The notes: generated from the letters alone by a model not told the origin. Shown: positions 16,989 through 58,820, counted from the stretch's first letter. The stretch: 64,000 nucleotides of DNA from an uncultured Gemmatimonadales bacterium (GCA_963701965.1 OY969695.1:3360001-3424000), one strand, 5' to 3'. Program-made: numbers and translations.

Positions 16989-18370
16989 ACGTCGAATTCT
17001 CCGGCGCCGCACAAGAAGTCACAGGGTCATGCCACATTCTGCGGGTGGCGGGACGCACTGTGCTCTTGGATTGCGGGATGTTCCAGGGCCACCGCCTGGA
17101 AGCCGATGCCAAGAACCGGCGCGTGCCGGTCCCGGTGGCGACCATCGACGCGATCGTCGTGTCGCACGCGCATCTCGATCACACGGGACGTCTGCCCTAT
17201 CTGGTGCACCAGGGCTACGCGGGTCCCATCTTCACGACGGCGGCCACGCGCGATATCTCGGTGGCACTGCTCGCCGACAGCGCGCACATCCAGGAGAGCG
17301 ACGCCGCGCACATCCAACGGCACGGGCGGGAGGCCGTCCAACCGCTCTACGACTCGAATGACGCGTCGCGCACCATCGAGCGCATGCAGCCGCGTCCGCT
17401 GGACGAATGGTTCGACGTCGTGCCCGGCCTACGCGCGCGCTACGGCGAGGCGGGGCATATCCTGGGCTCGGCGTCGGTGACGCTCGAGGCGACCGAACAA
17501 GGGGCCACGCGCCGGCTCATCTTCTCCGGCGACATTGGACGCTGGGGCCTCTCGATCATTCGCGATCCGGTGGCGCCGTCCGATGGCGCGCACATGGTCA
17601 TCATGGAGTCGACGTACGGGGACCGGGACCACGAGAGCGTGGCCCAGGCCCAGGAGCGCCTGGGCGATGTCGTGCGGGCGACGGCGGCGCGCGGCGGGCG
17701 CATCATGATTCCGGCGTTCGCGCTCGGCCGGGCGCAGGAGTTGATCTACGATCTGCACGCGCTGGCCCGCGCCGGCCGGATCCCGCACATCCCGATCGTC
17801 ATCGACAGCCCGCTGGCGAGCGCCGTCACCACGGTGTTCGAGAAGCATCCGGAACTCTACGACCGGACCGAGTCGATGGTCCGCGATGTGCCGCAGTTGT
17901 TCCAGTTCGACATGCTCCGCTACACCCACAGTACCGAGGAGTCCAAGGCGCTCAATACCGAGACCGTGCCGATGGTGATCATCGCCGGATCGGGCATGGC
18001 GGACTCGGGTCGCATTCTGCACCATCTGCTCCACGGCGCATCCGATCCCCGCAACACGGTACTCATCGTCGGATTCCAGGCCGAGCATACCATCGGGCGC
18101 CGCATCGTCGAGCACCGACCGACGCTCAAGATCTTCGACCAGCACGTGCCGCTCCGCGCCCAGGTCGAAGTCCTGAACGGGTACAGTGCCCACGCCGACC
18201 GCACCGAGCTGGCGAAGTGGCTCGACGCGGTGCACGCTGGCGCGCCGCAGTTGGCGCGCGTTTGCCTGGTGCATGGCGAGCCGCAGGCCCAGACATCGCT
18301 GATGGAGCGGTTCGCCGCCAAGGGGTACAAGGTGACCAACCCCGCGCCCGGTACCAAAATCGACGTTTAG
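16985..18370 (+). CDS. beta-CASP metallo-beta-lactamase-fold RNase
   Basis: GTGA overlap with USP; GAAQEVTGS, LDCGMFQG, SHAHLDHTG, AGHILGS, MESTYG, SAHAD, LVHGE. Confidence 0.93.
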   Translation: MNVEFSGAAQEVTGSCHILRVAGRTVLLDCGMFQGHRLEADAKNRRVPVPVATIDAIVVSHAHLDHTGRLPYLVHQGYAGPIFTTAATRDISVALLADSAHIQESDAAHIQRHGREAVQPLYDSNDASRTIERMQPRPLDEWFDVVPGLRARYGEAGHILGSASVTLEATEQGATRRLIFSGDIGRWGLSIIRDPVAPSDGAHMVIMESTYGDRDHESVAQAQERLGDVVRATAARGGRIMIPAFALGRAQELIYDLHALARAGRIPHIPIVIDSPLASAVTTVFEKHPELYDRTESMVRDVPQLFQFDMLRYTHSTEESKALNTETVPMVIIAGSGMADSGRILHHLLHGASDPRNTVLIVGFQAEHTIGRRIVEHRPTLKIFDQHVPLRAQVEVLNGYSAHADRTELAKWLDAVHAGAPQLARVCLVHGEPQAQTSLMERFAAKGYKVTNPAPGTKIDV

Positions 18371-18440
18371 CAGGGTGCCGAAAGAACGCACGCCTGCTAA
18401 ACGCGTCGGTTGAACTGAGCTCCGCCGCGCGGAGCTCTAA
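18367..18440. repeat. Two-hairpin REP/MITE-like intergenic element, copy 1
   Basis: Homologous to the reverse complement of 51353-51427; shares GTCGGTTGAACTGAGCTCCGC.GCGCGGAGCTCTA. Confidence 0.8.
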
Positions 18441-38700: not shown

Positions 38701-38782
38701 AGGTGTGGTGTCTCACCGATCGTTGACTATTGCCACCAAGCAGGGATGGAACCCTTGGAACCCGGGCCGGTTCCAACTCGGT

Positions 38783-41002
38783 ATGCCCATCCGGCCGTCA
38801 TACCGCGCGGCGGGAGCAGCCGCGTGCGCCCTCTTCGCGCTGTACGTGGCGACTTTGCTCCCGTCGACCGCGATGTGGGACACGAGCGAGTACCTGACGG
38901 CGGCCCACGTGCTCGGGATCCCGCACCCGCCGGGGAACCCGTTCTTCGTCCTCATCGGCCACGTCTTCTCCCTGCTGCCCGTCGCGCCCACCATCGCGCA
39001 ACGCGTCAACCTGATGGCCGCGCTCACCAGCGCACTCTCGGCCGGCGCCTGGTTTCTGGTCACCGAACGCGTCCTCGCGCACTGGCTGCCGAAACCGTGG
39101 CAACGGCTGGCCGGCGCCACCGTGGCGGTCCTTGTCGGCGGCACGGCTTTCACGGTCTGGAGCCAATCCGTCGTCAACGAAAAGGTCTACACGGTCTCAC
39201 TCCTGTTCTTCGCGATCGTCGCCTGGCTCGTCATCCTGTGGTCGGACGACCCGGATGCCCCAGGCGCCGAGCGACTCCTCGTCCTCAGCGTTTTCCTGAT
39301 CGCCCTCGGCTACACCAACCACCCCGCGGGCTTCCTCGTCGCTCCTGCCGTCGCGGTCGCGATCCTCGCCCGCCGCGCGCGCCTGCTCGTCGATCCCCGC
39401 TTCCTCGGCAAATGCGCCGCCGTGTTCGCGCTCGGCCTCACGCCTTTTCTGTTCGAGCCCATCCGCGCCGGCAACCTCCCGGCGCTCAACGAAGGCGAAA
39501 CGACGGCCTGCACGACCCACTTCGCGTGGAACTGCACGCTGACGCCTGAGACCTGGGACCGGTTCCGCGACCAAGTCACGCGCAAACAATACGGCGGCCA
39601 TGAGCTCGTGGAGCGGCAAGCGCCGTTCACCGGCCAGATCGCGATGTACTGGATGTACTTCAAGTGGCAGTGGATGCGCGACGTCACTGGCGCGCACCCC
39701 GGACTCCAGAGCGGCCTCGCCGCGCTCTTCCTGATGCTCGCGCTTCTCGGCGGCTACGCGCACTGGCGACACGACCGGGCCAGCTTCTGGTTTTTCGGGT
39801 CACTCGTGTTCACCGTGACGCTGGCGCTCGTCTACTATCTCAACTTCAAGTACGGCTACTCCCAGGACCCGTCGCTCGGCGAACGCGAAGTCCGCGACCG
39901 CGACTATTTCTACCTGTGGAGCTTCAGCGCGATGAGCGTCTGGATCGCGCTCGGCCTCGTCACACTATGGGAAACCTGTGCAACGCTCCGCGTTGCCAGG
40001 TCCCCAGTCGGTTGGACAGATCTCGGCTCCGCCCAGATCCTGGGCGCCGGTCGCCGTTGGCTCGCGGCTTCGCCGGTGCTGCTCCTCGCCGGCGTGCCGT
40101 TCGTCGCCAACTTCCACGCTGCCCCGCGCGCCGAGCAGGTCGTCACCCGCGATGTCGCCATCGACCTCCTGAACTCGGTGGAACCCTACGGCATTCTGGT
40201 CACCGGCGGCGACAATGATCTCTTCCCGCTCTGGTACGCCCAGGAGGTAGAAGGCGTCCGGCGCGACGTGCTGTGCGTCACCACGTCGCTGCTCGGCACC
40301 GAGTGGTACGCCGGGCAGCTGCTCCGGCGTCCGGTGTACCCGTACGACGCGGCGCACGGACCCGCGGCCTATCGCGGCCGCCTGTGGCCCAAGCCCACCC
40401 GGCCGCTGTTCACGATGTCGCTTGCCGACACCCGACACGTGCCGGACTTCGTGCCGCTGGCCCAGGCGGTGACGTTCCACAAGCCCGGCACCGCCCTCGT
40501 CGCCACGGTGGATCCGAAACGATTGCCATTCGGCGGCCTGACCCGCGCCAATGTGTTCGTGCTGCACATGATCGCCGACGGCAGCGAACGGCCCGTCTAC
40601 ATCAGCACGACCTATGGGAACTACGGATCGACGCTGGGCTTGGACTCGCATCTCCTCACGCAGGGGTTCGCTCGCAAGGTCGTCGACGACACGCCCGTCG
40701 CCACGCGCGACACGGTCATGGTGCCCAGCGACGGATGGATGGACACCAGCCGCTCCAACGCGCTGTGGCGCGAGGCGCGCGGACCGGCGACGATCGTCCG
40801 GCATACCGGCTGGAGCGATCCCGCGTCGGTGGGCATGCCGTTGCTCTACGTGTTCCGTGGCTACGCGCTGGCCGAGGCCCTGTCAGTCCGGCACGAGCCT
40901 GGCGACGACCAGCAGGTCAACGCCGTCATGCAACAGCTTCATGGTATGGCCAACGCCCTGGGCGCGAACGATCTGTTTTCTCCACGGGCCAGCAGTCGCT
41001 GA
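38783..41002 (+). CDS. DUF2723 / TMEM260-like GT-C membrane glycosyltransferase
   Basis: WD.SEY...A..LGIPHPPG.P.F, VNEKVY, REVRDRDYFY, GDNDLFPLWY.QEVEG.R.DV. Confidence 0.9.
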   Translation: MPIRPSYRAAGAAACALFALYVATLLPSTAMWDTSEYLTAAHVLGIPHPPGNPFFVLIGHVFSLLPVAPTIAQRVNLMAALTSALSAGAWFLVTERVLAHWLPKPWQRLAGATVAVLVGGTAFTVWSQSVVNEKVYTVSLLFFAIVAWLVILWSDDPDAPGAERLLVLSVFLIALGYTNHPAGFLVAPAVAVAILARRARLLVDPRFLGKCAAVFALGLTPFLFEPIRAGNLPALNEGETTACTTHFAWNCTLTPETWDRFRDQVTRKQYGGHELVERQAPFTGQIAMYWMYFKWQWMRDVTGAHPGLQSGLAALFLMLALLGGYAHWRHDRASFWFFGSLVFTVTLALVYYLNFKYGYSQDPSLGEREVRDRDYFYLWSFSAMSVWIALGLVTLWETCATLRVARSPVGWTDLGSAQILGAGRRWLAASPVLLLAGVPFVANFHAAPRAEQVVTRDVAIDLLNSVEPYGILVTGGDNDLFPLWYAQEVEGVRRDVLCVTTSLLGTEWYAGQLLRRPVYPYDAAHGPAAYRGRLWPKPTRPLFTMSLADTRHVPDFVPLAQAVTFHKPGTALVATVDPKRLPFGGLTRANVFVLHMIADGSERPVYISTTYGNYGSTLGLDSHLLTQGFARKVVDDTPVATRDTVMVPSDGWMDTSRSNALWREARGPATIVRHTGWSDPASVGMPLLYVFRGYALAEALSVRHEPGDDQQVNAVMQQLHGMANALGANDLFSPRASSR
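39969..40044 (+). repeat. Single in-frame copy of the 62-bp array element inside the DUF2723 gene
   Basis: 22-nt exact match GTCGGTTGGACAGATCTCGGCT (40007-40028) plus homologous flanking hairpins. Confidence 0.85.
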
Positions 41003-41049
41003 CAGTCGAGCTTGCTCCGACGGGCCCCGGCGTGTTAACAAGCACGCCC

Positions 41050-41844
41050 ATGAAAACATCTCTTCGAGCCATCGCGCTACTCCTGATCGCGAGCGCCCCG
41101 GTGCGCGCGCAATCCGATCTCGCCAAAGAGGGCGTCGTCCTCGACTTGCACGGCCATTACGCCGAGGCACGCGCCGATTTCCAGAAGGTGCTCGACGCGG
41201 CGCCAGATTCGACCAAGTCCCGGGCGCGACGGACGCTGGCGGTCTCGTACGCGTTCACCTGCGACATCCCGCACGTCAAACAGTACGAGCACCAGGTGAT
41301 TGACCCGCAGATGACCGCGGGGAACTACCTCGCGGCGGCCGACGTCGACAACGAGTTGGCGCGCATCCTCCTCGAGTGCGGCGACCTGAATGGCGCCTTG
41401 GAGACGTACCGGGCGGGTCACGACGCCGCCCTCCGCGCGCCGGCGCTGTCCGACACCGCCCGCGATCTGTGGAACTTCCGGTGGGAGCACGCCCAAGCGC
41501 GCATCGCCGCGCGCCGCGGGAACAAGGCGGACGCCGCCCAGCACGTCGCGCAGGCCAAGGCCATTCTCGACAAGGGCACGAACCCGGACCAGAAGCGCTT
41601 CTATCCCTATCTCACGGGCTACGTCGCCCTTTATACCGGCGACTATCCCACGGCGATCGCCGATCTCCAGCAGGCGGATCAACACGATCCCTTTATTCTC
41701 GTCTTGCTCGCCCAGGCCTACGAGAAATCGGGCGACAAAGCCCAGGCCATCACGTACTATCGCAAAGCGCTGGAAAGCGATGCGCACAACCCACCGAACG
41801 CGTTCGCCCGCCCGCTGGCCAAGCGCAAGGTGGCCGCGACCTAA
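41050..41844 (+). CDS. Secreted tetratricopeptide repeat protein
   Basis: Signal peptide ending VRA-Q; helical TPR patterns (GDY..AI..L, LAQAYEKSGD...A...Y.KAL). Confidence 0.8.
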   Translation: MKTSLRAIALLLIASAPVRAQSDLAKEGVVLDLHGHYAEARADFQKVLDAAPDSTKSRARRTLAVSYAFTCDIPHVKQYEHQVIDPQMTAGNYLAAADVDNELARILLECGDLNGALETYRAGHDAALRAPALSDTARDLWNFRWEHAQARIAARRGNKADAAQHVAQAKAILDKGTNPDQKRFYPYLTGYVALYTGDYPTAIADLQQADQHDPFILVLLAQAYEKSGDKAQAITYYRKALESDAHNPPNAFARPLAKRKVAAT

Positions 41845-41884
41845 CGGTCTTGCGTTGGGGCGTGACGCGCGATAAAACATCAGT

Positions 41885-42415
41885 ATGATCAAAATCATAT
41901 CGAATCTCGCGCTGCTGCTCGCGACCGCCGTAGCCGGTATCGCCCCGGCATCGGCGCTGGCGCAACCGTCGGACTTCAAGAAGCCGAGCGATGCGGAGCT
42001 CAAGAAAAAACTCACGCCCGTCCAGTATCAGGTGACGCAGAAGGCCGCGACGGAGTTCGCGTTCCGGAATGAGTACTGGGACAACCACGAGCCCGGCATC
42101 TACGTCGACATCGTGTCGGGCGAGCCGTTGTTCAGCTCCACCGACAAGTTCGACTCCGGCACCGGTTGGCCGAGCTTCACCAAGCCGTTGGAGCCGGCCG
42201 ATATCAAGACCAAGACGGACCGGTCTGTGATGGAGGTCCGGACCGAGGTGATCTCGGTACACGCCGGTTCGCACCTGGGTCACGTGTTCGACGATGGGCC
42301 CGCGCCCACGGGACTCCGATACTGCATGAACTCGGCGGCGATGCGCTTCATCCCCGCCGACAGCCTGGAAGCCGAGGGCTACGGCAAGTACGCGAGCTTG
42401 TTCAAGACCAAATAG
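41885..42415 (+). CDS. msrB: Peptide methionine-(R)-sulfoxide reductase with signal peptide
   Basis: [43 protein letters not shown]. Confidence 0.96.
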
Positions 42416-42436
42416 AGGCTGCCAGAGACGGCAGCA

Positions 42437-42844
42437 TCAACGGCGCTTCTTTCCCTTGTTCGGGCGCCGAGAGGGCGGGAGCGCTGACAACTGCACCCGG
42501 TCGTACGCGCCTCGTTTCGCGTCTTCTGGATGCGGCTCCAATCCGATAACGGTGACTTGGCCACGGTCGGGACCGTAGACCCAGAACAGGCGTCCGGCAC
42601 CAGGCGTGTTGTTCTCAATGTATGACTCGAAGACCTTCTGGCCAAAGCGTTTGGTCAGCTCGGCAATCTCGTGGCTCTGAAGGCCCGGGTGATAGGGGTT
42701 CTCCGCCAAATGTCCGAGCGCCCTGGCGAATCGCTTCGCAAAGGCGCGTTCGGGCTTCGTAAGGGAATCATCCCTCAATCCGTCCATGAGATAGCGCCAG
42801 ATCTTCTCGAGTCCTGGCACACCCGGCATTACCTCGAACCTCAT
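42437..42844 (-). CDS. Putative RelE/ParE-superfamily type II toxin
   Basis: A...L..NP.HPGL.SHEI, FESY.ENNTPGAGRLFW.YGP...T...LEPHP; basic protein lying downstream of a small gene. Confidence 0.6.
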   Translation of the reverse strand: MRFEVMPGVPGLEKIWRYLMDGLRDDSLTKPERAFAKRFARALGHLAENPYHPGLQSHEIAELTKRFGQKVFESYIENNTPGAGRLFWVYGPDRGQVTVIGLEPHPEDAKRGAYDRVQLSALPPSRRPNKGKKRR

Positions 42845-42930
42845 AGCGGCGTAGCAGGCCTCCCCCCGGGGAAACGAAAAAAGCGACGCTGATCGGCGCC
42901 GCCCCAACCCTCGCGGACTTTCGAAGTCCG

Positions 42931-43194
42931 CTACTCGTCTTGTTCGACGAGCTTGAGCATGGCGGCCCAATCCAATGACTTGCCGACGCGGCCTTTCGCG
43001 AAGTTCTCCATCGCCTCGTCCATCTGATCGAGCGTGGCCAGCGAGACTGTGGGATCCGCTAGCACACGCGGATACAGCTCGATATGACCATCGCTGAACA
43101 GTTTGGCGTGGTAGTGCTCGAACGCCGCGGGCTGAATCGTGAAGCGCTTTCGTGGATCGCGCCTCACGTCAAATTCTTTGATGACAGTGCTCAT
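42931..43194 (-). CDS. Putative AbrB-like antitoxin
   Basis: 87 aa; D.RKRFTI...Y.....DGHIEL.P beta-hairpin-like N-terminus and acidic helical C-terminus. Confidence 0.6.
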   Translation of the reverse strand: MSTVIKEFDVRRDPRKRFTIQPAAFEHYHAKLFSDGHIELYPRVLADPTVSLATLDQMDEAMENFAKGRVGKSLDWAAMLKLVEQDE

Positions 43195-43281
43195 GCGCCT
43201 ACCCGGTGCGCGTACCCAGTCCCCGAATCCCCAATCCCCACCTGCCCAATATTACCGCTGGGGCCCAACTGAGGCAATACC

Positions 43282-43392
43282 CTATTTGGGCTTTCGGGCA
43301 AAACCCACGATCAGCTCGTCGTGCAAGCCGTGATGTCGGGCGAGCCAGGCGCCGAAATCAGCCGGGGTCGGGAAGAACGTCGCCTTCTTTAT
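43282..43392 (-). pseudogene. N-terminal remnant of a YdeI/OmpD-associated family gene
   Basis: Translates as (I)KKATFFPTPADFGAWLARHHGLHDELIVGFARKPK*; begins at ATA overlapping the upstream stop. Confidence 0.65.
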
Positions 43393-43814
43393 GGAAGCCG
43401 GCGTGGCGGATCTCCCTTCGTGAACAGCAGACTAGCGCGCCGACCGTCATACTCGGCCATCACGATGTTGACCTGATCGTCGAACACATCGAACAACGCG
43501 CGCGCCGCGATCGTCATGCCGCTCGGTCCGCGTGGCGCCGCGGTCCGAACACAAAGCCAAAGGACATCGCCCTCCCGCCGCGAGCCACACCAGGTCGTCG
43601 GCAGCGGGCGTCCAGTTTGGTCCGCGAGCGCGATGGTCGCCCGCGCGTACGTCGAGTCGGCCTGATGCGCGCGCGCCAGCGCGCGGCCCAAGTCATCGGC
43701 GAACGCGCGGGTCGTCGCCGTGAGAGATGCTGTGCGGGGATCGTAGCTCAACGTCGTGAGCGTCGTGTGCATCGGATGGAACAGACACGCCAGCACGAGA
43801 CAGGCCACTACCAC
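43389..43814 (-). CDS. DUF6702 family protein
   Basis: HPMHTTLT...F.DD...LFD.FDDQVNIV pattern; coupled to the HupE/UreJ stop. Confidence 0.7.
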   Translation of the reverse strand: MVVACLVLACLFHPMHTTLTTLSYDPRTASLTATTRAFADDLGRALARAHQADSTYARATIALADQTGRPLPTTWCGSRREGDVLWLCVRTAAPRGPSGMTIAARALFDVFDDQVNIVMAEYDGRRASLLFTKGDPPRRLP

Positions 43815-44395
43815 GGCCTGCGCTCCACGGCCCAGCCCGCGGCAACCACGGCCACCACCGTCGACACGGCAATCACCCGCAAGCGGAGTGGAGACGGCGC
43901 GCGGCTGGGGAGGCGGAACGCACCGATGGCCCGGTCGACGGCGGCCAGCGCGACGGCGGCGCTCGCGAGCGCGAGAATCTGACCCAACTCGATCCCGACG
44001 TTGAAGCCAAACAACGGAAGCGCAATGTGATCCACGAACAAGCTGCGCAGATAGTTCGCGAAACCCGCGCCGTGCACGAGACCAAACACGCCCGCGAAGA
44101 CCGCGCGATATCGGCCGCCGTCTTTGGCGAACAGATTCTCGATGCCGGTCAACATGATCGTCACCGGGATCAGGAACTCGATCACCGGCGATGGCAGCGT
44201 GAGCGTGCCCGTCACGGCCAAGGCGAGCGTGATCGAATGTCCTACCGTGAAGGCCGAGACGACCCACAGCGCGCGACGCCAATCGGCCGGACGATAGATC
44301 GCGGCCAGGGCCAGCAGGAACAGGATGTGATCCATCGCGCCAGGATCGACGATATGGCGAAATCCCAGGTGGACGAACGTCAGCCACTCACTCAT
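43808..44395 (-). CDS. HupE/UreJ family membrane protein
   Basis: LGF.HI...DHILFL, AFTVGHSITL, FGLVHG.GFA, FNVGIELGQ. Confidence 0.92.
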   Translation of the reverse strand: MSEWLTFVHLGFRHIVDPGAMDHILFLLALAAIYRPADWRRALWVVSAFTVGHSITLALAVTGTLTLPSPVIEFLIPVTIMLTGIENLFAKDGGRYRAVFAGVFGLVHGAGFANYLRSLFVDHIALPLFGFNVGIELGQILALASAAVALAAVDRAIGAFRLPSRAPSPLRLRVIAVSTVVAVVAAGWAVERRPW

Positions 44396-45692
44396 GAGTC
44401 AGTACGGCCCGCGCACTGTCCGGCTGCGTCGGGTGAAAGTAGGGATTCGTGTCGAGCGCCCGCCGGAGGTAGACCCGCGCCGAGTCGGACCGGCCTTGGG
44501 CGCGCGCGATCATGCCGGCGTGGTAAAAGAGCAGCGCATCCTGGGTACCCTGGCTGAGCGCACGCGTCATGGCGCGCGCGGCTTCGGGATAGCGGCCGTT
44601 CCGGTAGAGCGCCCACGCCAGCACATCGTAGCCGTAGATGTCGCGGCGGGTGCGAAGCTCTTGGCGGGCCTTCCCCAGCACTTCCGGCACACGGCGCGCG
44701 TGGTCCAGCAGAAACAGGCTCCAGGCCCGATGATAGGCGCCCGGTTGCTGGGAGACGGCCACCTCCATCGCATGCGCATAGGCGTTGGCCTGCACCGTGT
44801 CGCCGAGCGCCAGGTAACAGTCGCTCACGGTGCCGAGCGTGGCGGGATCGAGGACCGCGGCGATCGCGCGATCGCCATCAGCGATCGCGGCGCGCCATTC
44901 GTGGCGCACCGCGTGCAGATGCGACAAGGCGGCGGCGATCCGATAGTCGTCCGGGTGGGCCGCGAGACCCAAGCGATACTCGCGTTCGGCCGTGTCGGGT
45001 TGCCCCATGCGCAGCGCCAGGTCGCCGAGTCGGAGCCGGAACCAGGCGCGTTGCTCGCTCGGCAGATCCGTGCGGGCTTGGGCGGCGGCGATCGCGTGTT
45101 GGAGTAGCGAGCGCGCTGTGGCCGGATGCCCCTCGATCTCCTCCCATCGCGCCAGCCGCGGCGCCACGGAGAGACTCCGCGCCTGCGTGCGGAGCGAGTC
45201 GAACGTGCGGCGCGCTTCGTCGTATCGTCCCAACTCGACCGCGATCTCGCCCGCCATCGCCCGGTACGACACGCGCTCCGGGTCCAGCGCGGTCAGTCCC
45301 CGAGTGACGTCGAGGGCTTCGGCGAACCGGTGCTCCGACAGCAGCGCCGAGGCCAGCACTTGCGCGGCCAGCGCATTGCGGGACAGCCGGTTGTGGAGCG
45401 ACCGGCGCGCCGCGCTATCGGCGCGGAGCACGTCCTCGTAGTGGCCCGTCTCCCGGCTCCGCGCCAAATACAGTTGTGCCGCGCGGGCCAGGTCCATGGC
45501 CCCGGTCGGATCGCGCCGGGCGCGCGCCTCGTAGAAGGCGATGTCGAGATCGCGCGTTTCGGCCTCGCTGTGGACGGGCCCCAGCGCGTACAGCGGTGGT
45601 GATGGCGGCGGAGAGCGCCGGGCCGCGTAGGCGTACGTGCTGCCCGCCAACGCCGCCACGGCGACGGCGGGCAGCACGAGACGGGGGCGCAT
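44388..45692 (-). CDS. Tetratricopeptide repeat protein
   Basis: TGATG coupling to the upstream gene; RETG, H.F..A, ELGRYDEA, D.LAWALY..G, YHAGMI. Confidence 0.88.
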   Translation of the reverse strand: MRPRLVLPAVAVAALAGSTYAYAARRSPPPSPPLYALGPVHSEAETRDLDIAFYEARARRDPTGAMDLARAAQLYLARSRETGHYEDVLRADSAARRSLHNRLSRNALAAQVLASALLSEHRFAEALDVTRGLTALDPERVSYRAMAGEIAVELGRYDEARRTFDSLRTQARSLSVAPRLARWEEIEGHPATARSLLQHAIAAAQARTDLPSEQRAWFRLRLGDLALRMGQPDTAEREYRLGLAAHPDDYRIAAALSHLHAVRHEWRAAIADGDRAIAAVLDPATLGTVSDCYLALGDTVQANAYAHAMEVAVSQQPGAYHRAWSLFLLDHARRVPEVLGKARQELRTRRDIYGYDVLAWALYRNGRYPEAARAMTRALSQGTQDALLFYHAGMIARAQGRSDSARVYLRRALDTNPYFHPTQPDSARAVLTHE

Positions 45693-46243
45693 CAGTGCGG
45701 GTTCCCCACATACGGGAACGTTGTCTGGTAGTCCGTGTGCGGCGGGACGTTGTCGTTGCACAGCGCCGGGCAGCTGTTGCCCGCGGTCTCGATCAGCGTG
45801 CCGAAGATCGCGTCGAGACCCGCGGCCACGACGTCGTCATTGAGCTTCCGGCCGCCGTAGCCGTTGGCCAGCGCCCACGTGAGCCAACCGGCACCGGCCG
45901 GGTCCTTGTCGGTCTGGACGATGAGCATGTCGGGCAGGAGCACCGCGGCGAGGGTGTTCTGCACCGTCGTGTCGCGGCCCGCGACCGTGGCGACGAAGTT
46001 CTTGAACTCCGCCTCGATGATGGTGTCTTGGGCCGGCCCGAGGGAGCCGTGGGTGGGGTGACTGCGTTTGGCAAGGAACACTTCGCTGACCAACGGATTG
46101 CCCAGGCGTTGCACTTGGTCGAACATGCGGGTCGAGGTCGACGGGCCGGTCGTTGAATTGGACCCGTTGTTGTCGTCGCTGCACGCGGCGACGGTCATGA
46201 TCGTGGCGACCGCGGCCACGAGACACAGAGCTCGGCGAGACAT
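45692..46243 (-). CDS. DUF4331 family lipoprotein (resembles the C-terminal half)
   Basis: Lipobox VAAC; QV.RLGNPLVSE, LLPDML, GGRKL.DDV, FPY...H. Confidence 0.8.
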   Translation of the reverse strand: MSRRALCLVAAVATIMTVAACSDDNNGSNSTTGPSTSTRMFDQVQRLGNPLVSEVFLAKRSHPTHGSLGPAQDTIIEAEFKNFVATVAGRDTTVQNTLAAVLLPDMLIVQTDKDPAGAGWLTWALANGYGGRKLNDDVVAAGLDAIFGTLIETAGNSCPALCNDNVPPHTDYQTTFPYVGNPH

Positions 46244-46269
46244 TGCTATAGTCCTCTCGTGGTGTAAGG

Positions 46270-47004
46270 TCAGCGGCTGATCGTGCCCCAGAGGCCGATC
46301 TTGGCGTTGCCGCCGGCGGTCAACATCGATGTCGGCAGCTCGACGACGATCGACAGCACGTTGTGGCCGGCGACGAAATCGACGCCCGGGTTGCGGAAGC
46401 TCGTCGCTGACGGCGTGTTCGGGAGTTGCGACAACGTGCCGGTGACGGGTTTCCGGTCGGGCAGAATGCGGAAGAATTGCTCGAGGTCGATGAAGAACGG
46501 GTCGCTGCGCGGGCCGGCAAAGAGTTGGATGCCGGACGCGGTGCCCAAGACCGTGTTGACCTTGCCGGTCAGGACGGGCGTGCCGGTCGAGATCGTGTTC
46601 TGCATCGCGCCGACGACCGGCGGTTTGATCGGGCCCCACAGTGAGACCGTCTGGTTGGCGCCGGTGCCGCTGAACGTCACCTGCATCACCAGGTCTTCCT
46701 TGGCGTCGCCGGTGTTGTCGATCTTGAACTGGTACAGGAGGTTGGGATCGAACGATGTGCTCGCCGTCGAAGCCGGCGTCAGGAACGCCCAGCTGTCGAG
46801 GACGAGCGCGATCCGTCCGGCGGCCGAGCCGGGGAACGCGTAGAAGTCGGTCATGTCTGTCGCCGGGTTGAGCTCGACGTCAGGGCTGTCCTGATGGTCG
46901 GAGCCAAGCGCGTGGCGTGTGGCGAGCCCGCCGGCGACGAGGGCGACGAGCAGGCCAGCCGTGAGCAGGCGTGGCCGGGAAAGCAACGTACGGGCGTAGC
47001 GCAT
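46270..47004 (-). CDS. DUF4331 family secreted protein (resembles the N-terminal half)
   Basis: GGAGG RBS; SDH.D.P, D.TDFYAF, Y.FKIDN.GD, FAGPR.DPFF.DL, NVLSIVVELP, W.TISR. Confidence 0.85.
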   Translation of the reverse strand: MRYARTLLSRPRLLTAGLLVALVAGGLATRHALGSDHQDSPDVELNPATDMTDFYAFPGSAAGRIALVLDSWAFLTPASTASTSFDPNLLYQFKIDNTGDAKEDLVMQVTFSGTGANQTVSLWGPIKPPVVGAMQNTISTGTPVLTGKVNTVLGTASGIQLFAGPRSDPFFIDLEQFFRILPDRKPVTGTLSQLPNTPSATSFRNPGVDFVAGHNVLSIVVELPTSMLTAGGNAKIGLWGTISR

Positions 47005-47049
47005 TGCCGCCTCCGTGGAAGAGCGCTGTGGTCTGGTATGCGCCCTACC

Positions 47050-47076
47050 TACGCCGCTCATCGCACCGCGGATCTG
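47050..47076 (-). promoter_or_regulatory. Putative ECF (SigK-like) promoter CAGATCC-N16-CGTA
   Basis: -35 at 47076-47070 and -10 CGTA at 47053-47050, about 45 nt upstream of the DUF4331 start. Confidence 0.55.
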
Positions 47077-47600
47077 TGCGATGCTTCGCATTGCCAGATC
47101 CGTCGTCGGTTGGACAGATCTCGGCTGCGCCGAGATCCCGCGATGCTTCACGTCGCCAGATCCGTCGTCGGTTGGACAGATCTCGGCTGCGCCGAGATCC
47201 CGCGATGCTTCACGTCGCCAGATCCGTCGTCGGTTGGACAGATCTGGGCTGCGCCGAGATCCCGCGATGCTTCACGTCGCCAGATCCGTCGTCGGTTGGA
47301 CAGATCTCGGCTGCGCCGAGATCCCGCGATGCTTCACGTCGCCAGATCCGTCGTCGGTTGGACAGATCTGGGCTGCGCCGAGATCCCGCGATGCTTCACG
47401 TCGCCAGATCCGTCGTCGGTTGGACAGATCTGGGCTGCGCCGAGATCCCGCGCCGCTTCACGTCGCCAGGATCCGTCGTCGGGTTGGACAGATCTCGGCT
47501 GCGCCGAGATCCCGCGATGCTTCACGTCGCCAGATCACGCGTCCGTTGGACCTATCCCAACTCCGCCGAGATCTCGCAATGCGAAGCGTTGCTGAGATCC
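47070..47600. repeat. 62-bp structured tandem repeat array (7 near-identical units + 1 degenerate) with ~32-bp terminal inverted repeats
   Basis: Unit GCCAGATCCGTCGTCGGTTGGACAGATCT(C/G)GGCTGCGCCGAGATCCCGCGATGCTTCACGTC starts at 47093, 47155, 47217, 47279, 47341, 47403, 47465 and 47529; no spacers. Confidence 0.95.
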
Positions 47601-47628
47601 GTTGGCGCGCGACCATTGTATCGAGACG

Positions 47629-48205
47629 GTGCGATTCACACTCATAGTCGCGTTCGCGACGATCCCGTGTGCGTTACGGGCCCAGGCCGCCGATAGCGCG
47701 AAGAACCATAAACTCGACACTCTTCGTGTCATGGGCCGCGCCAACGATCTGCATGGGATCGCCGGTTCGGCGTCCCAGGGGACTGTGGGCGCCGTCGATC
47801 TTCGTCTCCGCCCACTAGCACGAGAGGGCGAGTTGCTAGAGACCGTCCCGGGGATGATCGTCACCCAGCACTCGGGCCCTCGTGGGTGGCATCACCTGGA
47901 CGCCGCGACCGCGCGGTCTCTTCGCCGCCTTCCGTGTCCGCCGGTTCGGGTCCTATCCCCTGACCCAAGACATATAGTATCCGCGCCGGTTCGACCACGT
48001 TGTGCAACGCCGACGTCGGGTTCCAGTTCGCCGGGGAGTCCGTTTGCAGCTCACGATGCTCAACGTGTTCGATTCCAGGGGCGACGACATTGACTACTAC
48101 TATGTCTCGCGCCTCCCCGGCGAACCGGCGGCCGGCGTCGGCGATCAGCATTTCCATCCCGTCGAACCGCGACAGCTCCGGGTGTCGGTGGCCTGGGGAC
48201 TCTGA
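47629..48205 (+). pseudogene. TonB-dependent receptor remnant (large internal deletion plus frameshifts)
   Basis: Signal peptide and plug start (SASQG.V......RP..R.GELLETVPGMIVTQHSG) joined near 47877 to the C-terminus (N.FD....DIDYYY.SRLPGEP..GV.D.HFHPVEPR..R). Confidence 0.85.
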
Positions 48206-51352: not shown

Positions 51353-51427
51353 CTAGAGCTCCGCGCAGCGGAGCTCAGTTCAACCGACAATGCCCTAGCG
51401 GGGGTGCGTTCTTCAGCACCCCGCTAG
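51353..51427. repeat. Two-hairpin REP/MITE-like intergenic element, copy 2
   Basis: Reverse complement aligns with 18367-18440; bounded by CTAG on both sides. Confidence 0.8.
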
Positions 51428-53223
51428 GGCAACACGTCGATTTCGACGTTCGACGGGGACTTGGCCGTCCGGTAGATCGTGTGTTGCCGCGCCTGATAGT
51501 CCTGGGGTCGCGCCTGGAAGATATTCGGCACGAACGTCTGGGGGTTCCGGTCATATAGCGGGAACCACGTGCTCTGCACCTGCACCATGATGCGGTGGCC
51601 AGCGCGGAACGTGTACGCCTGCTGGTGCAGATCGACCGTATAAGGCTCGACCTGCCCCGGCGGAATCGGCGCCGCGTGCTCGAAGCTCTGGCGATACCGG
51701 CCGCGCATGATGTCCGCCGTGACGATCAATTCGTATCCGCCCATGGTCGGCCGGTCGTCGATCGTGTCGGGATACACGTCGATGAGCTTCACGACCCAGT
51801 CCGCGTCGCTCCCGGTCGTCGCCGCATAGAGATGCGCGACGACGTTGCCCGCGACCGTGAGGTCTTCCGTCAGGGGCGCGGTCTGCCATGTCAACACGTC
51901 CGGGCGTTCGTCGACGAACCGCTGGTCCTCCGTCATCCACCGCCGCCAGCGCGACGTCGCCGAGTACGTCCGTTCGACGGGGCGCGGCCGGTAGGGTACC
52001 GGATGCGTCGGGTCCGAGACGTAGCGATCGGCGCCCGTGTCGGCCTTCGCCGGTGTCATCGACAGCGCGCGGCCCGACCGGAAGTACAGATGCTTGTGCG
52101 CGACACCGGGGGCCGGCCACTGCGCGAACGTGCGCCACGTGTCCGTGCCGCCGTCGAACACCGTGGCCGCCGGCGTCGTGCCGCCGGCCGAGTCGTGGAG
52201 CCAGTGCGCGAACCAGCGCGCTTCCAGCGCGCGGAAGTCGATGCCCGTCGGCCGGCCGAAGCGCGCGTTGCCGAGCGCGATGCCGGAATCACCGGCCCAT
52301 TGTCCGTGGAACCACGGACCCATGACCAATGAGACTTGGTGCGTCGTGTCGGTCCGCGCCAGCGTGCGATAGGTGAGGAGCGGGCCAAACTCGTCCTCTT
52401 GGTCCCACCATCCGCCGACGACCAGCGTCGGAATCGTCGCGTGCGGAAACGTCGTCGCCAACGATCGGCTCTTCCACTCCGCGTCGTAGGCGGGATGGGC
52501 GACGAACCGCTCCCAAGTCGGCCAGGCTGTGGCGCCGACCGATTTGGCCAGCGCGCCCAGCGTCGGATACGAGAGGTACCACTCGTACGTGTCGTACCGC
52601 GCCGGAGACGGCGTGACACTCTGGTCCTTCGACGCTTCCAGGGACCAGGCGTACTCGAGGCCGTACGTCAGGCGAAACGCGCCCTGGTGAAAGAAGTCGT
52701 CGCCAAGCCACGTGTCGGCCATCGGCGCCTGGGGACTGATCGCTTTGAGCGCCGGATGCGCGCCGATGCCCGCGACGGCGGCCAGCCAACCCGGATACGA
52801 GACGCCGTAGATGCCGACGCGTCCCGTGTTATCCGGGACATTGTGAATGAGCCACTCGATCGTGTCGTACGTGTCCGTGCTCTCGTCGGTGCCCGTCGTC
52901 GTCGTCTTCTGCGGCCGGTTCATGACAAAGGATCCCTCGGACTGAAAGCGTCCGCGGATGTCCTGCAACACGAAGATGTAGCCATCGGACACGAAGTCGG
53001 CGCGCCCTTCCGCAAATCGCGCCAGATCCATCGGCCCGCCCACTCCATACGGGGTCCGTGTCATGAGCATGGGCAGCGGGCCGGAGGCCCGCTCGGGGCG
53101 GATGATGACGGTGTAGAGGCGCACGCCGTCGCGCATGGGGATCATCGCGTCGGTCTTGACCAACTGGCCGGGCACCGGGCGCGCCAGCGCGGTGATCGCG
53201 AGCAGAGTGGGGAGGAGTTTCAC
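51424..53223 (-). CDS. CocE/NonD hydrolase (alpha-amino acid ester hydrolase / glutaryl-7-ACA acylase-like)
   Basis: Signal peptide; [56 protein letters not shown]. Confidence 0.93.
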   Translation of the reverse strand: MKLLPTLLAITALARPVPGQLVKTDAMIPMRDGVRLYTVIIRPERASGPLPMLMTRTPYGVGGPMDLARFAEGRADFVSDGYIFVLQDIRGRFQSEGSFVMNRPQKTTTTGTDESTDTYDTIEWLIHNVPDNTGRVGIYGVSYPGWLAAVAGIGAHPALKAISPQAPMADTWLGDDFFHQGAFRLTYGLEYAWSLEASKDQSVTPSPARYDTYEWYLSYPTLGALAKSVGATAWPTWERFVAHPAYDAEWKSRSLATTFPHATIPTLVVGGWWDQEDEFGPLLTYRTLARTDTTHQVSLVMGPWFHGQWAGDSGIALGNARFGRPTGIDFRALEARWFAHWLHDSAGGTTPAATVFDGGTDTWRTFAQWPAPGVAHKHLYFRSGRALSMTPAKADTGADRYVSDPTHPVPYRPRPVERTYSATSRWRRWMTEDQRFVDERPDVLTWQTAPLTEDLTVAGNVVAHLYAATTGSDADWVVKLIDVYPDTIDDRPTMGGYELIVTADIMRGRYRQSFEHAAPIPPGQVEPYTVDLHQQAYTFRAGHRIMVQVQSTWFPLYDRNPQTFVPNIFQARPQDYQARQHTIYRTAKSPSNVEIDVLP

Positions 53224-53253
53224 GGTGCCAAGTTGCGGGCTGAACCGTGTCCG

Positions 53254-53292
53254 CACAAGGCGCGTAGCACAAGGCGCCATAACACAAGGCGC
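53254..53292. repeat. Triple direct repeat CACAAGGCGC upstream of the CocE gene
   Basis: Exact 10-mer at 53254, 53268 and 53283. Confidence 0.75.
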
Positions 53293-58491: not shown

Positions 58492-58820
58492 GCCCGAGAT
58501 GTAGTCGTAATCCACGAACGAGCGCCCGGCGATAATTCGTCGCAGGCGGCACTGTCCTCTCAGCCACGGCCCGAGAGGCCATGGTGATCCACCAACGAGC
58601 ACGGCGACACTTCGTGGCAGGCGGGTTGTCCTCTCAGCCACAGCCCGAGAGCTCATGGTGATCCACCAACGAGAGCACGGCGACAATTCGTAGCAGGCGG
58701 CGTTGTCCACTCGGTTTTCAGCCCGAGATGCAGCTGTAATTCACGAACGAGCGCCCGGCGATAATTCGTCGCAGGCGGCCTGCTGTACCGAGACGCCGGA
58801 GACGAATTATCGCCGGGCGC
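58492..58820. repeat. Degenerate ~74-78-bp tandem repeat (4 units, A-B-B-A) ending in a 20-bp inverted repeat
   Basis: Units start GCCCGAGA at 58492, 58569, 58643 and 58721; GCGCCCGGCGATAATTCGTC (58751-58770) is inverted at 58801-58820. Confidence 0.85.

Follow-up and report, generated by a model that had tools for sequence, protein, structure and literature searches.

A 63-nt DNA repeat was found inserted in frame in a gene for a DUF2723/TMEM260-like membrane glycosyltransferase-family protein of an uncultured Gemmatimonadales bacterium, and the same mobile repeat has entered 12 further genes of this genome. The newly recognised feature of the repeat is that the inner arm of its first hairpin mirrors the host flank of each locus, as described below for its TAG-associated copies; in-frame repeats themselves are already known.

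Results

An in-frame repeat unit in the DUF2723 gene

The window analysed is the whole 64,000-nt stretch (G000:C1:3360001-3424000) of the source genome G000, which consists of one 5.12-Mb contig; positions without a prefix are those of the window. The host gene (38780-41002, plus strand; Pfam PF11028) is the sole unbroken full-length copy of its DUF2723 group in G000. A paralog at G000:C1:836538-838712 is broken across three frames and is either a pseudogene or the product of long-read indel errors. Named homologs of the protein come from the Gemmatimonadaceae, and TMEM260 is the sole solved structure among its relatives.

The insert (39977-40039, plus strand) comprises 21 codons, residues 399-419. 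A sequence-only reading of the window had placed within this ORF, between two predicted transmembrane segments, a diverged copy of the unit of a nearby tandem array, with a 22-nt exact core and both hairpins, and this description was confirmed. The in-gene copy (39976-40040) matches the first unit of the array (47074-47138) at 85% in a gap-free alignment of 65 nt, the longest exact word common to copy and array is 22 nt, starting at 40007, and BLASTN of the copy against its own genome gave an E value of 2.75e-14. Both hairpins fold (z = -3.26, with 0 of 200 shuffles equally stable), hydrophobic peaks lie on either side of the insert at residues 376-394 and 427-445, and both peptides that had been quoted are present in the ORF translations.

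The host codons W-E-T (39968-39976, plus strand) form the outer arm of hairpin 1 and include a degenerate target, AACC, in place of GATC. These are followed on the same strand by the upper stem, GCT-N-CGC loop and inner arm of hairpin 1 (39977-40006), a near-invariant 11-nt core between the two hairpins (40007-40017), and hairpin 2 (40019-40039), which has an 8-bp stem, a 5-nt loop and, in this copy, one C-C mismatch, and which ends in a probably element-borne GATC. The inner arm at 39997-40006 is complementary to the W-E-T codons with a one-base offset, pairing with AACC and the host W codon, and the stem changes are compensatory and private to the DUF2723 copy.

In four syntenic same-genus genomes the ortholog, which has the same gene upstream, is shorter by exactly 63 nt, and deletion of 39977-40039 gives a gap-free alignment with it. 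The earlier expectation of about 25 added residues at this loop is refined to 21 codons. Of 120 DUF2723 homologs, 117 could be anchored; the distance between anchors is 95 residues in 89 of these, 98 in 9 (the source included) and 77 in 4, the insert-free congeners. The presence of the same peptide in orthologs from genomes lacking the repeat had been named as grounds for rejecting an insertion; read by eye, 0 of the 116 other anchored homologs carry it. Most of the family already has a loop about as long as that of the source. Because inter-anchor lengths vary across the family, the loop tolerates length change. A tree of 53 proteins, built without the loop, groups the source with the 77-residue clade as its sister (support 1.0); in the clade next out the distance is 92-98 residues, mostly 98 like the source, so that an older loop may have been overwritten. 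An AlphaFold model, for which the input alignment included native long loops, places residues 399-419 at a helix end, a loop and the start of the next helix; the fold is kept, and confidence is lowest over the insert, with block pLDDT values of 69 and 55 against a mean of 88.8 overall.

Subtypes and distribution of the repeat

Each 63-nt unit is laid out as hairpin 1, the 11-nt core and hairpin 2. The loops are mostly GCT-N-CGC, which on the opposite strand reads GCGNAGC, a sequence described as a mini-hairpin (PMC13037366). Hairpin 2 shows stem covariation: 517 of 560 alignment cells are paired, individual columns contain several types of pair, and G-T occurs in 7 cells. The source genome holds 82 units at 51 loci, 74 of them recovered by an iterated profile at E 0.01 or better and 8 more by a pattern search, and two further units were seen afterwards. 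The in-gene copy had been taken for a single outlier near the array; it is instead one member of this family, of which two other related copies lie within the window. The terminal word is GATC in subtype A (26 loci) and CTAG in subtype B, which also has stop codons; subtype C, found in relatives, has a third hairpin.

The intergenic tandem array (47070-47601, plus strand) contains eight units with periods of 62, 62, 62, 62, 62, 63 and 63 nt and is closed at 47570-47601 by an inverted copy of hairpin 1. As had been read from the sequence, the array unit has no stop in the plus frames; one occurs in a minus frame. Periods are multiples of three in 5 of 5 intragenic arrays versus 3 of 7 intergenic ones. 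A CRISPR array was ruled out, as the units run head to tail with 94% matches and no spacers. Two CTAG-subtype copies sit directly after TAG stops, at 18371-18440 (plus strand, behind the gene at 17078-18370) and 51353-51423 (minus strand, behind the gene at 51424-53280), and their inner arms mirror the final 7 and 8 host bases, respectively.

BLAST located the unit in 6 of 41 genomes, and these 6 belong to a single genus; the 41 include one unpublished genome (G012) with no match. The exact pattern was found in 0 of 300 other genomes of the class, whereas among 185,579 species genomes the exact motif occurred at 15 places in 5 Gemmatimonadaceae/Gemmatimonadales assemblies. In metagenomes it was found at 21 places, of which 17 represent the repeat family; rows L121, L124, L141 and L137, which do not belong to it, were dropped, as were six duplicate rows for loci counted elsewhere. 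Viral contigs, plasmids and phages gave no match to the motif, and an Rfam search of 39800-47800 returned one chance-level match (19.9 bits against a gathering threshold of 50).

Subtype A copies cluster near dnaA (2,722,497), with 20 of 26 within 750 kb (p = 7e-7; G000:C1:2261575-3435946), or 10 of 13 when neighbours are merged (p = 5e-4). Subtype B does not cluster there (5 of 16 within 750 kb), and strand bias with respect to replication is slight (18 of 26, p = 0.08).

Two other features of the window were recorded. A second, unrelated intergenic repeat at 58492-58820 consists of 3.5 units of 75-78 nt with an inverted partial copy at its close, and its 30-nt head is present at five other places in the genome. 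At 42437-43194, two small adjacent minus-strand genes without an NCBIfam match at 1e-8 have a layout that we take to recall a toxin-antitoxin pair.

Other invaded genes and mobility of the repeat

With ORFs assigned by our own gene model of G000, 15 of the 26 subtype A loci (about 58%) lie inside ORFs. Homologs were compared for 13 of these 15, the other two belonging to no family, and all 13 carry extra residues. Relative to congeners, 21 residues are added in pyruvate kinase and in a metallo-beta-lactamase-fold protein (5 of 5 each) and in an alpha/beta hydrolase (3 of 3), whereas Ogt is longer by 20 or 21 residues than 33 of 33 anchored homologs (of 37). Additions of 23 residues were seen in an SNF2-like helicase, 19 in AlkA (whose homologs are just 44-46% identical) and 29 or 30 in a PD40 protein. 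Two units each are present in VirD4 (40 or 44 residues added), a PIG-L protein (40 residues), HisH and Lhr, and ImuB (G000:C1:2274914-2275200) contains four units in frame, the frame breaking a few codons past the array. Pyruvate kinase, HisH and Lhr are single-copy genes. DNA-repair genes are among those invaded (AlkA, Ogt, ImuB and Lhr), as has likewise been reported for repetitive extragenic palindromes (REPs; PMC3733652). At the hisH loop that is invaded in G000, the congener G004 (L075) holds a different, unrelated repetitive stretch and is about 19 residues longer than G002. Against congeners, dN/dS was about 0.13 for the kinase and 0.21 for the DUF2723 gene, with controls at 0.04 and 0.15; as dS is near 1, these ratios tell little about the time since insertion. 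Production and activity of the decorated proteins would be indicated only indirectly, by intact ORFs, single-copy status and low dN/dS.

In-ORF copies are read in four frames, giving four unrelated predicted peptides, with 12 of 15 in antisense orientation relative to their host gene (p = 0.035). For use of the remaining two frames, GATC would have to fall in the codon phase where 1398 of the 35622 coding GATCs (4%) are found. The peptide VGWTDLG.A.I, proposed as a TBLASTN probe for further invaded genes, would consequently miss most of them, because only 1 of the 15 in-ORF loci is read in that frame. Since the peptides are unrelated across frames, the peptide is unlikely to be what selection acts on, and the inserted segment is likely without a function of its own.

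Four genes that are filled in other genomes, with 24 to 26 additional residues, are empty in G000, and ImuB in L131 is 63 nt longer than in 3 of 3 congeners and is hit at a different site than ImuB of G000. As filled and empty sites are thus reciprocal between genomes, the repeat is mobile, as the sequence-only reading had proposed.

Junctions and target words

The words at the junctions are GATC-like for subtype A and TAG/CTAG for subtype B. In the 21 of 26 subtype A loci that could be placed in a fixed register (5 loci with indels were left out), GATC is present at the right end in 20 and at the left end in 13 (Fisher p = 0.02). A target duplication should decay alike on both sides; the observed decay is one-sided, which suggests that the right GATC is borne by the element and the left is host target. 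The left GATC-like word would then be a tolerant host target that extends the hairpin 1 stem, and insertion would occur behind a degenerate target rather than with a classical target-site duplication. GATC is not enriched in G000 (observed/expected 1.06). Longer junction repeats of 8 nt at Ogt, 16 nt at VirD4 and 12 nt (exact) at Lhr were also found, where the host DNA already resembled the element; an automatic direct-repeat finder was used, which proposed implausible pairs at several loci, and clear cases alone are quoted.

The mirror arm of hairpin 1

In the 15 subtype B copies examined, the inner-arm five-mer beyond CTA was set against the host five-mer preceding TAG; the two match at 63 of 75 positions, compared with a mean of 34.5 and a maximum of 55 of 75 in 20000 trials with shuffled flanks (one register, G3970009, was shifted by hand, and the misregistered row L133 was kept). 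All 15 five-mers differ. The match falls to chance at positions 6-7 (12 of 30, p = 0.09). Among genes ending in TAG, a mirror of at least 7 of 8 bases was seen in 12 of 16 with the core versus 21 of 912 without it, the match consisting partly of the element's own CTAG.

At two stops the origin of the mirrored bases could be assessed from congeners. The C-terminus of glutamate dehydrogenase is conserved and the site is empty in four congeners and three other genera, whereas the stop carries the element in G000, L128 and L136; in L136 the whole right arm mirrors host codons at 15 of 15 positions, and in G000 the arm follows a synonymous difference. The C-terminus of an MBOAT protein is likewise conserved, with the element absent in four congeners. 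Because the C-termini are conserved in element-free congeners, the mirrored bases in these two cases are host coding DNA. Three further stops were set aside as proof of host origin, those of PhzF and a CocE-type protein (paralog-level matches only) and of a histidine kinase (orthologs with longer C-termini).

Subtype A shows no mirror excess outside GATC (1.52 versus 1.42, p = 0.31), and its mirroring trends upward with divergence (rho 0.43, p = 0.054). Among the 7 copies with a substituted left 4-mer, the inner arm matches fully in 1 and partly in 1. An apparent subtype A signal in an initial test (6.04 versus 5.36) included element-internal stem positions and was gone in the fixed register. 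Subtype C gave no mirror signal in that same initial test, from which 7 rows had been dropped (3 mis-anchored and 4 orthologous duplicates). As young subtype A copies lack a mirror excess, the pattern favours repair after insertion, by which the mirror arm would arise through template switching.

Several related structures were seen at gene ends. At the groEL stop of G002, G005 and G004 (L187, L185 and L184), hairpins mirror the last codons and the core is absent, the mirror being perfect in G002, and G000 has a decayed element copy at this stop. At the MBOAT stop, a different hairpin insert of about 55 nt, with CTAG at its end, occupies the same TAG in G001 (L200); a short remnant is left in G003 and nothing in G005, so that the site looks like an insertion hotspot. 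In the subtype B copy at G000:C1:4780733 the upper hairpin is gone, and the host end and its mirror abut as a perfect palindrome.

Searches for a mobilising enzyme

No mobilising enzyme emerged from the family searches, the scans of host and neighbouring proteins or the motif scan. The Y1 transposase family PF01797 was found in 0 of the 6 genus genomes (67-95% complete), with the control positive in 6 of 14. A PF01541 search of G000 gave two GIY-YIG matches in long ORFs of 615 and 510 residues, neither a small nuclease and one UvrC/Cho-like, and a PF05598 search gave one DUF772 match distant from every copy. Pfam and NCBIfam scans of 207 host and neighbouring proteins (96, 51 and 60) returned nothing recurrent. 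A crude scan with general motifs (four-helix-bundle, GxxExxY, DUF559, IS110, IS91, RT, HNH and Y1) yielded no candidate; its one IS110-like and one HNH match lie 154 and 38 kb from the nearest copy, and two tyrosine-recombinase matches are both more than 40 kb from any copy.

Discussion

Relation to known repeats

The sequence-only reading had compared the repeat to the Rickettsia palindromic elements (RPEs) and placed an RPE-like element in a different phylum. The in-frame invasion of proteins stands, while kinship with RPEs was not supported. Like RPEs, the 63-nt unit is a small structured repeat with no known mobiliser that occurs both between genes and in frame in conserved proteins. RPEs are described as 105-146 bp long (PMC2229807), with one long stem-loop, terminal inverted repeats and a conserved peptide carried in frame in conserved proteins (PMC2229807, PMC10969869, PMC3733652), whereas the unit here has two short hairpins around an unpaired core and yields four unrelated peptides from four frames. 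Its host is free-living and of high GC. Membership of the RPEs was therefore rejected on length, conserved peptide and sequence motif, in-frame fusion in conserved proteins being seen in 13 of 13 cases; the call of no kinship rests on the distribution of the exact motif, the two being set apart by descriptions rather than by sequence alignment. The repeat thus appears to act like an RPE and yet to be distinct, being shorter, read in four frames and confined to one genus.

The implied novelty of a case outside Rickettsia was likewise not borne out. Di Nocera 2013 reported in-frame intragenic REPs in Opitutus, Thauera, Thioalkalivibrio and Xanthomonas (PMC3733652), and in-frame repeats beyond Rickettsia are also covered elsewhere (PMC3184786, PMC2229807, PMC10969869). 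Hairpin 2 fits the REP criterion of a 20-40 bp stem-loop with an 8-9 bp stem and 4-5 nt loop, and its 8-bp stem, 5-nt loop and AT near the base resemble the CGTC families (PMC3733652). Further likenesses to GTAG/CGTC REPs are the occurrence as single copies and tandem clusters, the abutting of TAG stops, intragenic units that add 20-30 residues, and the lack of a dedicated transposase in CGTC families (PMC3733652). The present repeat differs in having no GTAG or CGTC tag beside hairpin 1 or 2 in the listed copies, in its fixed hairpin-core-hairpin unit, in the large share of subtype A loci that is intragenic, and in that the RAYT (Y1) transposase associated with GTAG families is absent from all six genus genomes. 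The available text of PMC3733652, REP consensus listings outside the comparison, holds no account of an arm that mirrors host DNA. More generally, no account of this repeat family or of a host-mirroring arm was found in the literature covered, in which subscription papers are thinly represented.

IS200/IS605 ends and RAYT-associated REPs share with the repeat hairpin ends, insertion at a short word apparently without duplication and possible target choice by pairing with the element (PMC5934647). The junction geometry, as known here from sequence, fits such target pairing, but no Y1 enzyme is present in the six genus genomes, the pairing is a plain extension of the hairpin stem, and the unit is far smaller. 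The cyanobacterial small dispersed repeat SDR5 (PMC4390886) is also very small, with a GATC-containing insertion word and no known mobiliser. The 63-nt repeat is longer than SDR5, its target is degenerate and it has several target subtypes. Quasi-palindrome template switching produces perfect arm complementarity in single events (PMC8604942, bioRxiv 10.1101/2023.04.19.537475), but is a mutational process and not an element.

Two other classes were considered and rejected. A MITE would be expected to have 15-30 bp terminal inverted repeats and a target-site duplication; terminal complementarity here is at most 8 bp, the end 4-mers are identical in just 13 of 21 copies and decay is one-sided. 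In integron attC sites, inverse core and core sites close one long hairpin that is used by the integron integrase, and the core word is GTTRRRY. The core of the repeat fits this word but sits between two hairpins, with no inverse core.

Proposed mechanism and alternatives

On balance we consider it probable, by a modest measure, that a selfish, non-autonomous, genus-restricted repeat inserts in frame, guided by pairing, and has its arm remodelled afterwards. The DUF2723 copy would be one in-frame insertion into a length-tolerant loop, with the same repeat in the 12 other checked genes. The element likely spreads selfishly and non-autonomously; its likely point of entry is after a short stretch of host bases to which the inner arm of hairpin 1 can pair, much as IS608 picks a tetranucleotide target by base pairing (PMC5934647). 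A putative trans-acting enzyme may act on single-stranded DNA, where it would recognise the core together with loops of the GCGNAGC type. Template switching during replication, which is known to homogenise the arms of inverted repeats (PMC8604942), would then even the hairpin arms, whereby the target-pairing arm would drift and new subtypes could emerge. Selection would act only as a filter, coding copies persisting if their length is a multiple of three and the loop tolerant, and stop-containing subtype B copies persisting at gene ends. Several observations count against this account. The searches described above found no mobilising enzyme, and the loop lengths in the clade next out would also fit overwriting at the DUF2723 site. 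Of the 15 subtype B copies, 10 differ at 0-3 of 33 bases (core plus hairpin 2) and yet all mirrors are private, so that slow repair explains them poorly, and the junction repeats at VirD4 and Lhr suit microhomology recombination equally.

A different timing of the mirror is possible, though we judge it unlikely: it may be written at insertion, either because a host end capped by a mini-hairpin is opened or copied some 5-15 nt back, which would leave every new copy with its target duplicated in inverted form, or because an arm of at least 8 nt guides targeting. The 15 distinct five-mers that follow their own flanks and fade to chance beyond position 5, the perfect mirror in L136 and tracked synonymous difference in G000 at the dehydrogenase stop, the host five-mer present at all four arm positions in L131, and the excess in TAG-ending genes with the core all speak for this, but that excess draws partly on the element's own CTAG, subtype A shows no excess beyond GATC, its mismatched targets mostly stay mismatched, its mirroring tends to rise with divergence, and element-free mirror hairpins occur at congener groEL stops. 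A bolder form, which we hold to be similarly doubtful, is a self-programming 63-nt element whose inner arm would serve both as target guide and as a tape rewritten at insertion, giving each daughter a new specificity; its mover would fall outside the searched Y1, small GIY-YIG and DDE families, and 21-residue peptides from four frames would be seeded into core enzymes. It is improbable that no dedicated enzyme acts and that units, released from tandem arrays in the form of small circles or single strands, are put back by host repair at microhomologies located at any point of the unit. Junction repeats of 4 to 16 nt with variable phase, several single copies that start with the array-internal junction form, a unit at the dehydrogenase stop that looks circularly permuted, the negative transposase searches and the clustering of subtype A around dnaA would all agree with this; the near-invariant 11-nt core amid unrelated stems suggests protein recognition instead, albeit that the searches required the core, and restriction to one genus is easier to understand with a lineage-specific factor.

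At the DUF2723 site itself, the repeat could have overwritten a native 21-residue loop, the short congeners having lost theirs separately, as the lengths in the clade next to the source and the 77-residue group might suggest. We regard this as quite improbable: with exactly one unit taken out, the gene aligns gap-free to four congeners, and other genes as a rule show pure additions of 21 residues. The simpler reading is a pure insertion into an allele with a short loop, and the loop is repeat-derived under either. The insert can hardly be explained by chance similarity, by a peptide inherited from an ancestor or by an error of assembly. Probable assembly indels do exist, in the DUF2723 paralog split over three frames and in ImuB, where the frame is lost after the array, but the strength of the BLASTN match and the private compensatory stem changes argue against artefact and chance, no homolog has the repeat peptide, and independent assemblies behave alike at other genes.

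Significance

For a free-living bacterium, the repeat provides a clean and recent collection of sites, some filled and some empty, at which proteins have been invaded. The invasion of the single-copy pyruvate kinase and HisH makes loop tolerance directly assayable. As to how REP- and RPE-type repeats move when they lack a transposase, two measurable clues come from the repeat: its asymmetric junctions and the arm that mirrors host DNA. Were the mirror formed during insertion, very small mobile DNA would have a new logic of targeting; were it formed later, template switching would be reshaping the ends of a mobile element.
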